From a virus (taxonomy: Duplodnaviria; Heunggongvirae; Uroviricota; Caudoviricetes), in IMG/VR virus record IMGVR_UViG_2698536428_000020: a DNA stretch of 39,678 nucleotides; one strand, 5' to 3'. Numbering within the stretch: the stretch's first letter is position 1; each line of letters opens with the position of its first letter. The position numbers are program-made. This document shows, in pieces, positions 21,001-27,000 of the stretch.

Positions 21001-24000
21001 AGTTGTGTACTCAATCAGGCTTGCCATACGCTTCACGCTCATCTGCGCACTGCTTTCGCGGATATTGACGCATTCGCCTTCAAGACCGGGTAAAACATCG
21101 GCTTCCTGTTTTGTCGCCACGGCATGACCGCTGATTAACAAAACTTTCCACTGTTCTGGTTTTAGCCATCTGCCGCACCACTGAACCTGTCGGGAGATAT
21201 CAGCGACCATCGCGTGAAATTTGGCATTTTGATCGAGATTCCGCTTGTAATCGGTGATGCGGATCGTAACGGGTTTGTCTTTATCGAGAGTTGTTGCAAG
21301 GATTGCGTTAATGGCGAATTGTTGCTGCTGCTTACTTCGGAGGAAGATAGTCTGGTTCATTATTCCCTCTCACTGGATTTTCCCAACAAAAAAGGAGCCG
21401 AAGCTCCTTTGGTTTCAGAATTCAAATTGTCTTGCCCGTAGTTGCGCCAGCATGCTTCTGGCCCTATGCACCATATAGTTGGCGGGATCAAGTTTTGCTG
21501 CTTCGCGGAGCAATGTGTCGCGAGTCCGGTTGGTTATATGACGAGTCTCGTAGGCCAGATCAAACAGTTTCCCGTAGTAATCAGAGTTCAGTTCTCTCAT
21601 GACGGGGTATAGCTGTTTACTGAGTTGTTGTGCTTTTTCCATCCAGAGTTGAACGTAGCAGAGCAGGATGATGTCTTCTGCTGTGAATTGCGGCTGAATA
21701 TGAGGTTGTGGCGGTATAGCGCTTTTTTCAGCTTCACGGTCCAGAATATCCAATACCCAGCGACGGAACTCTTTGGCTACTGGAGTTGTTGCGAACATCG
21801 CTACCAGGTGGGCACCGCGTAGAGAGAAAATACGCACATCTTTCTCTCGTAAGCTATTGTTGATCCCGTTGAACCTCATTTTGAGGTTGATTGACATACA
21901 AGGAGTAAACTCATCCGAATTGCGGTTGTATATCTGGGTGATTTTATCGCCGCGCGAATACTCCAGTGCAGAAGCCAAAGTCGCGGCAGTGAACCACTGT
22001 TTGCCGTCGTGTTCGATCGTTTCAAGAACGTGGGATTTGAATACGAGTTGAGTGCTCATAGTTTTATGTCCTTTCGATTCGTTCAGATCACCCCGTGTTC
22101 AGCAGGGCGGTCGGGTACTTGAACACCGTCGAAAGTTCGGCCCGCATCCTTAGCCTTGCGGCTGTTTTTCGGTATACGCGCTACCCGACCATATCTGAAA
22201 AATGGACATAAAAAATCCGCATGACTGACGGGCGCGGTTTCCGCTTTCGAAGGTGTGTTCAGCACCATGGAGCGGAATATATCCCCGCTAATGCGGATTT
22301 GTCAAATCTGGCCTTAAAACTCGAATTGTCTTGCCCGCAGGCTTTTCAGCATTGGTCTGGCCCGCTGGACAACGAAACTTGACTGGTCAAGCCGTGCCGC
22401 CTCCCGCAGTAGCGCGTCTCTGTTCTTCGTCACCATGTAGATGGTCTCAAACGCAATGTCATACAGCTTGTTCGTGTATGATGAATTCAGCTCTTTCATG
22501 ATGGGATACAGGTGTTTGCTGAGGTCCTGGGCTTTTTCCATCCAGAGCTGCATGTAGCAAAGGAGGATGATTTCCTCGGCTGTGAATTGTGGCTGAATCT
22601 GCGACTGCTGTTCGGTTTGTGTTGTTTTTCCCTGGCTGAAATAGCAGTCTTCCAGTTTTTCGAACACTTCCCACGCCTGATCGGTTTCGAGCATTTTTGC
22701 ATGACGGGCAGCGCCGCGTTCTGTCCAGAGGATGAGGGAGCGGGTTTTTGGGGAAATTTGTAAACCTCTTTGAGAGGTTCGCAAACTATCAAGTTCACAG
22801 CCACTTACTTTAAAGAAGTGTTTTCCTGCAATGAAACGACATTCATTACGTTTGAAGTTCTGCCGTATATGTTTTTCTTCAGTTTTGTATAGATTTGCCA
22901 ATAACCCTGTTGTTATTACAGGGACGTTAGAGTAAGTAACGACGACGAGGGATTCTACAGCGAGTTGCATGGTCATAACGACCTCCTTTAGCTTTTTCTG
23001 AAATTACCACCTCTGATAGTGGTGTCGGGAGGTTCAGAACGGCCTAAAGAACCGCGGACTTATTCCCCTTACGGGTGTTGTATTCGTCGCCCTCCCGACA
23101 TTGTTCGGGGATGTGACAGCACATTGTGCTATCACTGAATAACAGGCATAAAAAATCCAACACTGACGGGGTTGGTTTTGTCCGCTTTAGAGAGGTTCTG
23201 ACGCCTCACAAAGATAAATCTACAAGTAACGACCTATAACGTCAAGCCCGATCGGTTTCGAGCATTTTTGCGTGACGGGCTGCGCCGCGTTCTGTCCAGA
23301 GGATGAGGGAGCGAACGTTACGGGCGATTGTCACAGAGTGACTTAAAGACACTCTGTGCTTAAACTCACGCAATTCTGCACTTTCCAGCAAAAAATAATG
23401 TTTACCAATAACAAAACGTTCATGGTTTCGGCTGTGGTTTTTGCGAATATTAGTTACATCTGTGCCGTAAAGCTGGGCAAGAAGTTCAGTTGTAATAACT
23501 GGGATCTGGTTGTGGGTGATCGGGGAAAGAGTTTCAACAGAAACTTGAGTTGTCATAATGACGCCCTCTAGTGGTTTCTAAACTATCACCACCGTAAGGT
23601 TCCAATCATCGGGTGGTGAGACGCACAGGGTTGGAACTACCGGGAAACCGACCGGCGAGCTTTTCAGCTCCCCCATGCGCCCCACCATAATTCAGATGTG
23701 CGCGTGCATACGACAATAAAAAACACGCTCGCGGCGTGTGTTTGTCGCGGTCTCTATCCGGGGTTCCAATCCCGACGGTCAACTCGACCGTGCGAAGAAT
23801 ATAATCCCGGATACCTATTTTTGTCAAACAACCGTTGCGCATTACACAACAGTCGCTATAATGATTCGCGTAACGCAACAGGAAACAAGCATGATAAAAA
23901 GCTGGAAACACAAAGGACTTCAACGTTTCTTTGAAACAGGAAATGCATCAGGCGTAAATCCCAATCACGTTAAACGCCTGAGAACGCGCCTTCAGGTAAT

Positions 24001-27000
24001 AGATCAAGCTGAAATCATTGATGATATTAACCTTGCCGGGTACAGGCTGCACCAGTTGCAGGGTGACAGATCCGATACATGGTCTGTCACCGTCTCCGGT
24101 AACTGGAGAATCACATTCGAGTTTCGGAACGGCGATGCTTATATTCTTAACTACGAGGATTACCACTAATGGCGATGTTTAACCCCCCTCATCCCGGAGA
24201 AATTATTGCTGATATTCTGGAAGATCAGAATATTGGAATCAGGGAACTGGCAAGAGCGCTTGATGTCGCGCCTTCCACTGTTCAGCGACTGGTTTCAGGT
24301 AATGCGACAATATCTCCTGAAATGGCTGTTCGTCTCGCTGCTGTCCTGGGTGGAACTCCGTCTTCATGGATTCGTCTCCAGACGGCATGGAGCCTTGAAA
24401 AAGCGGAAAGAGAAGTTGACGTATCTCATCTCTCAACAAAATACCGCCCGGCAGAAATTTCGCCTCATGCTTAACCACCGCGCCGTCATTCTGGCGGCGC
24501 TTTACCCCAGAGAAATATCAATCACCGGATTGCCACATCCCACTCCGGATCCTGCCATCTCAAATCCGGTGAATCATTTCTCGCCGGAATAACCATTACG
24601 TCCTTTTCCCTCCGCTCCCTTTCTATCGCCATCACAGCCAATGCTGCAACCATGATGTATTTTTGTTCGTCGGTTCCTGTTTCATAACGACGCATGAGGG
24701 TAAACTCGGGGCGATCAGTAACCTCAATGATTTCGTTAATTTCTTTAATTTCGAGAGGAATATCCATGAGTTTAGTCTCCTTTGACATTACATGCCCACA
24801 CTGTTTAAAAGAGCGAGCTGTTATTGAGGCATTTGCCGAAAAACAAATTGAAAAAACACCTCTTTTTAACGTCGCTTTTGTATGCAGAAGTTGTCATCGA
24901 GGAGGTGTTGCTATTGTTGAAATCCCATCAGACCACTATCACGGCCCCATGGCGGAAAGCCAGAAAAAAGACCTCGATATTCTGATTTCAGGAAATAGCC
25001 AGTACCGTTTCCGCAAGATCTATCCTGCGGTCAAAAAAATTACCGCACCAGAATATACGCCCCCGGTTGCAGACCGTACTTTTGTTGAGGCAAAAGAGGA
25101 TTTACAGAGGAGGCGGTACGACACAGTGGTAATTCTTTGTCGCAGAGTCCTCGATATCTCCACGAAAAAACTGCTCGGCGATGAAGCAGGAAAAGAATCG
25201 CTGTCGCAACGTATTCAGATGATTTACAAAAAAGGGCTGATCACTGAACAGATGAAGGAATGGGCTCATATTGTACGAATTGATGCCAATAAAGCAGTTC
25301 ATACAGATGAAGTTTTCACACCAATTGAGGCAAGCCAGATCCTGAGTTTTACCGAAATGTTTTTAGTCTACGCCTTCACTCTGCCTGCAATGGTGGCAGC
25401 CAGACGTGAACAAAAAAGATCAGATTCAGCCTCTATATGAATCACTTTTCTGAACACGTAAGCCCCCGTCATTCACGACGGGGAGAACATCAATCCCTCT
25501 GCACTCCCCCGCCAGAATGCCAGCACACGCTGCATCGTTTCGCTGTTACGGCACTCGCGACAAATTATGTTGTAGCGTCTGTCGTAGCGCCGGATTTCCC
25601 CATCAGGTAATGCCCGGATAAGACCAGGGTCAATAACAACCGGTTTCTTTGCCTTTGCTCTCGAGAGTTTTTTGCGGGCATTTTGCCAGTCCTTACGCGC
25701 CTGATCAGACGGGAATAAACCATAACCTGAGTCGAATATAGCGCCACTGACAACCAGTTCTCTGGACAAACGTCTGACAGCTGTCTTGCTGACTCCGGTT
25801 TCAGTAGCCAGTTGCCTGAACGTTCCCCGACCATTCAGGCGCACGAGCTCCACAATACGTGCCTTCAGTTCTTCCCGCTGTTCGGGTGTAAATACTTTTG
25901 CCATAAGCTCTCCAGTTATCACTTTTCCGATGCAATACTGCTGGATGAATCGGTAATCTGCATGACAAGTTCCCGGTGTTTATTCAGCTCACGTAGTGCA
26001 GCACAGACACGCTCCCACTTCTGGACCTGTTTTTTGGCGCGACGAAGTTCACGACTGGCGGCCCGTAGAGGTGGAAGGGTCACTGCACCAGCATATTTTT
26101 CGGTGAACGACGGAACATCCCGGATAAACTCATCTGTACAGGCCTTTGCCGTGCCCTCTGACATCAACGGAAAACGATTCAGTTCGTCGCCTGACGCGCT
26201 GTTTTCTGCTTCGTGCGTGATATTCTCATCCTGCGATGATGACGCGCTCAAATCGCCGTTTTCGACGTCAGGCACTTTATAACGGAATTTTCCCTTGATA
26301 GACACGCGCACCAGGCGCCCCGTTGCTGTTACTACCGCCAAAGTGGAAGCAACCTTACGAGTGGTAACTCCGAACTTACCCGCTATTTCTTCACAGGTTT
26401 TAGCCCCCTCCTGAGCGATAAACTCAATCATCATGTCAGCGCTAACTTTTGGAGCGACCTCTTCGGTTACCACATCCGGCGCTTCAGATTGTAGTGCCTG
26501 CCCTTCGGTTACCCCGGATTCACCTTCGACAGCCAGAAACCAGGTGTGACCCGTTTTATCAACAACACCATTTTTTTTGAGTTCCCACAGTTCGTTGAGA
26601 ACTTCTTCACGGCTGATATCAAGCCGCGCCGCCAGTTCAACAGAATTGGCTTTACCCATCGCTTTCAGTGCATGCAATACGGTTTCCATCGAAAATTTAC
26701 CTCGTCAAAAATTCTCACATACCCTGACGCCCAACGTTTGACCGCCAGCTCTCCCAGTTAAAATTCACCCAACGACCACCGTTCATGGTCATACGGTCCA
26801 TCACCCGCTCGCCGAGGAGTGTGCTCATAGCTGCGTGATTCAGGTTCGTCAGCATCCCGACACTGCGCAGTGATGCCGTTCTGCGGTCGACGATCTGGTT
26901 CAGTATGACCTGCTCGTTGCGCGTATCCCGCTGCATGCCAATTTCATCAAGGACCAGAAGGTCTACCCCGCAAAGTTCCTGTAAAAATTTTTCCCCGGAC

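Follow-up and report, generated by a model that had tools for sequence, protein, structure and literature searches.

A HigB-HigA toxin-antitoxin pair of a Stx1a-converting lambdoid prophage of Escherichia coli and the cassette slot in which it lies

HigB-HigA of the Proteus vulgaris plasmid Rts1 is the best described relative of the type II toxin-antitoxin (TA) pair considered here. Structures of its HigB have been solved for the free, the HigA-bound and the ribosome-bound toxin (PDB 4MCT/4MCX; ribosome complexes 4W4G and 4YPB). Growth and cleavage assays identified His54, Asp90, Tyr91 and His92 as essential, single changes being tolerated at Arg48, Lys52, Lys57, Arg60, Asn71 and other positions (Schureck et al.; PMC5027501). 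On the antitoxin side, HigA-operator structures designate Arg40 as the only residue making a base-specific contact, with Thr34 and Thr37 touching the phosphate (PMC12266136). The present analysis concerns a higB and a higA gene found at positions 23891 to 24474 of IMG/VR record IMGVR_UViG_2698536428_000020, a stretch of 39,678 nucleotides from a virus of the Caudoviricetes (the whole stretch is hereafter called the window). With a probability that we put at about 85%, these genes form an Rts1-type HigB-HigA operon, a cassette that is driven by its own promoter, runs antisense to the PR operon, plays a selfish addiction role and is one of several interchangeable cassettes of a single slot.

Other described systems are less close. 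The best structural relative of the antitoxin is HigA of strain CFT073 (PDB 2ICP/2ICT), which shares 45 of 89 residues, the length class and the helix-turn-helix (HTH) with the window protein; it is a chromosomal protein of uropathogenic E. coli, and the comparison bears on the antitoxin only. Another type II system of an enterohaemorrhagic E. coli prophage, paaR2-paaA2-parE2 of the cryptic prophage CP-933P in E. coli O157:H7, is likewise autoregulated through operators (PMC8630535). It differs by its three components, its gyrase-targeting ParE toxin and its other prophage location.

The higB and higA genes and their carrier

The pair consists of two genes:

23891 to 24169, plus strand: higB, from the ATG at 23891 to the TAA at 24167-24169, 92 residues; a RelE-fold protein, predicted to be a ribosome-dependent mRNA endonuclease of the Rts1 HigB type.
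24169 to 24474, plus strand: higA, from the ATG at 24169 to the TAA at 24472-24474, 101 residues; an antitoxin with an XRE-type HTH, predicted to be an autorepressor.

As the first-pass annotation of this DNA had stated, the two genes overlap by TAATG, the stop codon of higB and the start codon of higA having one base in common. The order is toxin-first in one predicted operon, as in HigBA systems, and in Rts1 as well the annotated end of higB is the start of higA (195042). Shine-Dalgarno motifs were read from the sequence for both genes: AGGA at 23880-23883 (plus strand), 7 nucleotides (nt) ahead of the higB ATG, and GAGGA at 24155-24159 (plus strand), inside the 3′ end of higB and 9 nt ahead of the higA ATG. 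Since the coding regions overlap, translational coupling would suit this organization.

The first-pass annotation had further named a RelE-superfamily HigB toxin and an HTH-XRE HigA antitoxin, and the profile searches that it proposed confirm both names. HigB matches Pfam PF05015 (HigB-like_toxin) with an E-value of 1.4e-21 and 77.2 bits for a cutoff of 27, over positions 1-91 of the 91 of the profile. It also matches phrog_3066 ("toxin of TA system", E 6e-37) and, over residues 1-92, the Rts1 HigB of PDB entry 4MCT_B (E 3e-32). Both toxins have 92 residues and align from end to end without a gap, 56 of the 92 positions being identical (61%). His54, Asp90, Tyr91 and His92 of Rts1 HigB are all found unchanged in the window protein, and Asn71 and Arg73 are likewise kept. 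Asn71 was reportedly placed by Schureck and colleagues, in 2015, at the A-site +6 nucleotide. For HigA, the NCBIfam equivalog model TIGR02607 gives an E-value of 2e-25 and 88.4 bits (cutoff 47.7), Pfam HTH_3 an E-value of 4.9e-10, and the structures of HigA from CFT073 (2ICP) and from Rts1 (4MCX_A) E-values of 8e-28 and 1e-19, respectively. HigA is only about 40% identical to its Rts1 counterpart (35 of 87 aligned residues). Both have the XRE-type HTH, and the recognition helix retains Thr37 and Arg40, as read from the alignment against the published operator complex (PMC12266136).

A solved structure at 61% identity, together with matches to curated profile models, settles the question of the family. 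The same assignment was reached by the RefSeq and GenBank annotators. In RefSeq, the protein identical to HigB (WP_000597785.1) is named "type II toxin-antitoxin system RelE/ParE family toxin", and that identical to HigA (WP_001240641.1) "HigA family addiction module antitoxin". The HigBA identity is thus correct but ordinary: it was already annotated and belongs to a well-studied family.

The carrier is a Stx1a-converting lambdoid prophage of E. coli whose early-right operon, on the minus strand, hosts the two genes on the plus strand. Several Shiga-toxin-producing E. coli have a 100% identical region in their chromosomes, where it belongs to Stx1a prophages; the earlier description of the pair as prophage-borne therefore holds. 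In an annotated record, the insertion site of the prophage adjoins ynfG. The minus-strand operon comprises, in this order, cII, the replication genes, DUF1627, DUF977, ninB-ninH, Q and stxA1/stxB1, followed by the lysis genes, and higBA lies between the replication genes and ninB. The Rts1 system differs in this respect, as its carrier is a conjugative plasmid. A plasmid origin of the window allele was considered and rejected: it occurs on no plasmid, the HigB proteins of plasmids reach 67% identity at most, and in E. coli every copy is on the chromosome.

The pair had also been presented as plus-strand genes in an otherwise minus-strand operon. The orientation is right, but a DUF4145 gene (24766-25440) is on the plus strand too and forms a second antisense accessory gene beside the TA pair. 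This gene matches phrog_1305 ("DNA binding protein"), and its protein has a weak match to the defence candidate PD-T7-4 (E 1.3e-3). It stands head to head with an open reading frame (ORF) for 81 residues on the minus strand (24522-24767; phrog_8371, without a Pfam match), the start codons of the two overlapping at CATG.

Promoter region and flanking hairpins

The features surrounding the two genes are the following:

23718 to 23791, minus strand: isrK-like small RNA (Rfam RF01394, 55.9 bits for a gathering score of 50), divergent from hig; left edge of the slot described below.
23723 to 23739, minus strand: intrinsic terminator of isrK, called by the terminator scan (the "upstream hairpin").
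23827 to 23798, minus strand: isrK promoter, TTGACA and TATATT with an 18-nt spacer, 11 of 12 positions matched; it fits the isrK start.
23834 to 23850: candidate operator O1, GTTGCG-N5-CACAAC, overlapping the -35 hexamer of hig at a position corresponding to Rts1 O1.
23835 to 23862, plus strand: candidate hig promoter, read from the sequence, with -35 TTGCGC (23835-23840), a 16-nt spacer and -10 TATAAT (23857-23862).
23863 to 23879: candidate operator O2, GATTCG-N5-CGCAAC, directly after the -10 hexamer.
24480 to 24500, plus strand: conserved GC hairpin with a nine-pair stem (free energy -16.5 kcal/mol, z -2.94); right edge of the slot.

For comparison, the hig promoter of Rts1 was read directly from Rts1 DNA. 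It has a -35 TTGCAC, a 16-nt spacer and a -10 TATAGT, with two inverted repeats having 5-bp spacers. O1 covers the -35, the centre of O2 is 9 nt past the -10, and 30 bp separate the two centres. The layout in the window is closely similar: a -35 of the form TTGCnC, the same 16-nt spacer, and two candidate repeats with 5-bp spacers, the second of which is also centred 9 nt past the last base of the -10, the distance between centres being 29 nt instead of 30. On the basis of this Rts1-like layout, rather than of a promoter scan, the assignment of the hig promoter is plausible. The two operators are put forward by reasoning on the same analogy. Their half-sites, TGCG/CRCA within the preferred motif GTTGCG-N5-CRCAAC, differ from the TACA/TGTA of Rts1, which fits with the different recognition helix of HigA. 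Half-sites of the Rts1 type (TACA-N5-TGTA) were also looked for in the promoter and discarded: ATTACA at 23841-23846 resembles the left arm, has no partner, and is not conserved in the divergent allele described next.

This allele, found in FDAARGOS_944 (locus L093), diverges by about 8-10% in its coding DNA. Its -10 hexamer, the following 30 nt and its repeat arms are as in the window, and its O1 spacer differs. Locus L041 has one substitution within candidate O2. In the window, the isrK and hig promoters are placed back to back, their -35 hexamers (23822-23827 and 23835-23840) being 7 bp apart, and candidate O1 abuts the isrK promoter.

The first-pass annotation had described the pair as flanked by terminator-like hairpins. 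Hairpins indeed occur on both sides, but the upstream terminator is that of isrK, and the terminator scan did not call the downstream one. This downstream hairpin is followed by only UUU in the window and has no U run at all in GER2 and VT2phi_272. Its stem is stable; nevertheless, for lack of a U-tract, its reading as a canonical terminator was rejected. It may be a 3′-end stabiliser or a weak terminator.

These features also bear on the earlier claim of a moron architecture. The opposite strand, the absence or replacement of the pair in relatives having identical flanks, and the placement of both protein families by PHROGs in the category "moron, auxiliary metabolic gene and host takeover" agree with it. 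A deviating GC content does not: higBA was searched for a foreign base composition and none was found (GC 0.45-0.49, within the 0.44-0.52 of the flanks), so that this type of evidence for a moron was dropped. As to transcription signals, the promoter is plausible, if not recognised by the scan, and the downstream hairpin lacks the U-tract. With its sigma-70-like candidate promoter and its Shine-Dalgarno motif, both pointing against the PR operon, the pair may be regarded as moron-like in its architecture.

On the left side, isrK belongs to a series of three tandem units on the minus strand (21415-23791), each pairing a small RNA with an antirepressor-type gene that comes after it. In the first unit, isrK (23718-23791) precedes a C4 antisense RNA (23609-23692) and an ORF6N antirepressor gene that is truncated (23242-23556, minus strand). 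The second has an sRNA-Xcc1 (23016-23099) and an ORF6N/P22_AR_C gene (22314-22976, minus strand), and the third another sRNA-Xcc1 (22101-22190) and a BRO gene (21415-22059, minus strand). This arrangement resembles the c4/ant immunity module of P1, repeated three times.

A cassette slot beside isrK and the distribution of the pair

What is new at this locus is a slot for TA cassettes, in which higBA occupies the place where related prophages hold other TA pairs. In E. coli DETEC-S792, the flanks are as in the window: the left one is formed by the isrK promoter, the right one by the hairpin, the 81-residue ORF and the DUF4145 gene. They enclose another toxin-first pair, made of a Gp49-family toxin (PF05973, E 3e-22) and an HTH_3 antitoxin. 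Homology to DETEC-S792 begins just ahead of the GC hairpin, and homology to GER2 and VT2phi_272 stops just past it. The isrK RNA adjoins higBA or its replacements in locus L002 (phage VT2phi_272) and in loci L003 and L004.

IMG/VR was then scanned with the isrK promoter motif. At least 120 loci were obtained, and 98 of those listed have an isrK/C4-like left flank. Cassette families were assigned by Pfam, with the following contents:

No divergent cassette, genes of the PR operon directly after the isrK promoter: 64 of the 98 loci.
Too short for scoring: 4 loci.
Gp49-family toxin with HTH antitoxin: 12 loci.
RelE(PF06296)-like toxin with HTH antitoxin, the toxin being frameshifted in at least 1: 4 loci.
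RelE-like pair with an orphan HigA: 1 locus.
ParD, lipoprotein and orphan HigA: 4 loci.
ParD with ParE: 3 loci.
TumE with HVO_A0114: 3 loci.
HigB with HigA: 2 loci.
ParD alone: 1 locus.

Among the matches listed, every cassette-bearing slot holds a type II TA pair or a remnant of one, and the exact sequence of the hairpin occurs in 22 cassette-bearing loci vs none of the 64 empty ones. From these sequence comparisons, at least five type II TA cassettes are interchangeable in a single slot, and the higBA of the window is one of them; the alternatives (at least four) are Gp49/HTH, RelE-like/HTH, ParDE and TumE/HVO_A0114. All these cassettes have the isrK promoter as their left boundary and are divergent from isrK, and most have the GC hairpin as their right boundary. 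Where a toxin is present they contain two genes, mostly toxin-first, ParDE being antitoxin-first. Their toxins and antitoxins belong to families unrelated or only distantly related to HigBA. Intact ParD-ParE pairs are carried by the viral contigs L028, L050 and L079. In IMG/VR contig L025, within 400 nt on the right side of the isrK motif, a RelE(PF06296)-like toxin gene is split by a frameshift and its HTH antitoxin gene is intact; the split may be due either to decay or to a sequencing error.

Variable hotspots are established for P2-like prophages and P4-like satellites (PMC9122126). They resemble the present slot by their fixed position, conserved flanks and alternating small accessory systems. 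They differ in the phage family and in the position, and the slot described here held only type II TA pairs or their remnants among the matches listed, with a defence role that is putative. Our literature search found no paper linking isrK with TA cassettes.

The intact pair is found in at least four different prophage backgrounds. The FDAARGOS_944 copy, 92.5% identical, belongs to another lambdoid prophage, where ninE and an ant gene flank it and isrK and C4 are again adjacent. Between the two alleles, the codon changes are 16 synonymous and 5 non-synonymous in higB, and 19 and 8 in higA, the catalytic residues being untouched. Among 5426 complete E. coli genomes, 22 carry this higB allele and 68 this higA, always on the chromosome. 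Of 50,697 phage records, 46 encode HigA with at least 99% identity. For HigB, the only E. coli phage is GER2, whose annotation names the protein HigB; five records of Mannheimia phages have a HigB that is 56% identical. Plasmids contribute 550 records with HigB relatives; the closest is 67% identical, that of Rts1 being at 61%.

Loss of higB has taken at least two forms. In Stx2a phages of the PA2/VT2phi_272 type, a ParD-like antitoxin gene and a small lipoprotein ORF have taken the place of the hig promoter and of higB, of which about 24 nt are left at the 3′ end. There higA is intact (100 of 101 residues identical), and its Shine-Dalgarno GAGGA is kept while the rest of higB is gone. A prophage having flanks of this Stx2a type and an intact higBA also exists. 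Locus L029 corresponds to a second, independent replacement, in which the last 12 nt of higB are kept and a RelE-like/HTH pair precedes higA. Here the higA Shine-Dalgarno of the window is missing, homology starting only at 24158. Taken by itself, the orphan-higA pattern is no proof of selection for HigA, because a change is viable if it takes out the toxin and leaves the antitoxin in place. In L002 (2782-3759, VT2phi_272) and L006 (1828-2806, E. coli RM10042), the ParD-like gene and higA form a row of two orphan antitoxin genes without a toxin.

Two further observations were made elsewhere in the window. A small RNA of the STnc100 type (16704-16917, minus strand), with a strong Rfam match of 195 bits, is placed directly downstream of stxB1 (16996-17265) and upstream of a SASA esterase gene. 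The terminase gene (about 9518-10324, minus strand) is flagged as frameshifted by PGAP in the identical prophage of strain S19-651 (L001). This flag may mean that the prophage is defective, or may be an artefact of a gene spanning the start of the record.

Role of the pair

By analogy with Rts1, the following course of events may be imagined. The own promoter of the pair would be active in the lysogen, PR being silenced there by CI. HigA dimers would bind the inverted repeats O1 and O2 and repress the operon, and HigA would also bind HigB and neutralise it. If HigA became depleted, because the cassette was lost, proteases degraded HigA or host transcription was shut off, free HigB would enter the ribosomal A site, cut A-rich codons and arrest translation. 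The cleavage of A-rich codons is inferred from the 61% identity and the conserved catalytic residues. Because the cassette is antisense to PR and CI keeps PR silent, expression would probably take place mainly in the lysogen. One may also speculate that, at induction, read-through from PR would collide with the cassette. In the favoured interpretation, the pair would be a selfish addiction cassette, stabilising itself and the prophage segment that carries it. The exclusion of other phages is plausible as a by-product. The two functions that the first-pass annotation had suggested for such modules, abortive infection and prophage stabilisation, are both putative for this pair.

Several points weigh against this interpretation. 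The toxicity of HigB, its neutralisation, the binding of HigA to the operators and the specificity of cleavage are all deduced for this pair rather than observed. The generic consensus scan did not call the plus-strand hig promoter, because its -35 hexamer matches the consensus at only three of six positions. The operator motif was derived post hoc, and it has 5 matches over the whole window vs 2.2 expected, which is only a mild enrichment. In HigB, three basic surface residues near the mRNA path of the Rts1 toxin are changed (R48L, K57Q and R69S); at two of these positions, the single changes R48A and K57A showed the residue to be individually non-essential in Rts1 HigB (PMC5027501). HigB has no match among the defence models of PADLOC-DB v2, where HigA has only weak generic HTH matches (E 3e-4 or worse). 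Finally, among the carriers of this higA, higB is missing in 46 of 68 E. coli genomes and in 45 of 46 phage records. The toxin is thus readily dispensable.

The main rival to addiction is anti-phage defence, by abortive infection or superinfection exclusion, which we regard as possible but clearly less probable. An infecting phage would shut off host transcription or trigger the loss of HigA, HigB would cut mRNAs on ribosomes, and the infected lysogen would stop phage output. The turnover of cassettes in the slot, whose identical boundaries enclose at least five TA families, is typical of prophage defence hotspots such as those documented for P2 and P4 elements; competition between addiction modules could equally cause such a turnover. 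Protection of E. coli against lambda by HigBAC of strain NT1F31, a three-gene HigBA-chaperone system (bioRxiv 10.1101/2024.02.24.581848), argues in the same direction, as it places a translation-targeting TA unit named HigBA in a phage-host conflict. However, HigBAC needs the SecB-like chaperone HigC, its phage sensor, which senses lambda gpV; this third gene is absent at the present locus, and the likeness noted here is that of the HigBA name. The neighbouring DUF4145 gene, with its weak PD-T7-4 match, would fit a defence locus, whereas the failure of HigB to match a PADLOC model and the loss of higB from most carriers of this higA do not. An unlikely alternative, ranking after defence, is that the pair is a transient passenger of no benefit to phage or host, decaying towards the orphan-higA forms and persisting only since a deletion of higA alone is lethal. 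This would account for the excess of higA over higB in the complete genomes, for the presence of higB in a single phage record out of the 46 with this higA, for the two independent replacements of higB with different breakpoints and higA kept both times (ParD-lipoprotein, and RelE-like in L029), and for the frameshifted toxin of L025. It accords poorly with the window, where both genes are intact, with the mostly synonymous codon changes of the divergent allele and its conserved regulatory region, and with the variety of prophage backgrounds holding the intact pair.

A long shot, for which we see little chance, is that HigA is the key part and higB an accessory, HigA acting either as a repressor that co-regulates the promoter of the isrK-C4-antirepressor module, or as an anti-addiction or anti-defence antitoxin against HigB toxins from other loci. 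The 7 bp between the two -35 hexamers and the position of candidate O1 against the isrK promoter would suit the former role, and in the orphan form a ParD-like repressor of the antitoxin type takes the promoter-proximal place. Many Stx2a phages keep higA at 99-100% identity without higB, but survivorship alone predicts such a retention, antitoxin-only deletions being lethal. Moreover, about two thirds of the listed isrK modules (64 of 98, with 4 others too short for scoring) lack a TA cassette, and the binding of HigA on the isrK side is putative. In an extended and equally improbable form, the slot would be dedicated to the exchange of type II TA systems in lambdoid prophages, and the operator-bound antitoxin, 7 bp from the isrK -35, would also tune the isrK-C4-antirepressor switch. 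If this were true, the loss of antitoxin upon stress, Lon activity or infection would free the toxin and alter prophage induction together. In a weaker version, the orphan HigA of Stx2a phages may neutralise HigB toxins encoded elsewhere. Among these readings, selfish addiction is the one that we favour.

The HigBA pair as such matters little, since much work has already gone into the structures and the mechanism of its family and RefSeq has names for the identical proteins. Only the cassette slot and the frequent orphan higA of Stx2a phages deserve further investigation. Since the carrier is Stx1a-converting, HigB, if active, could influence how stable the lysogens of Shiga-toxin-producing E. 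coli are, how they are induced or how they resist other phages. The slot, placed beside a small-RNA and antirepressor module, offers a convenient natural system in which to ask whether the TA pairs of prophages serve addiction, defence or regulation.

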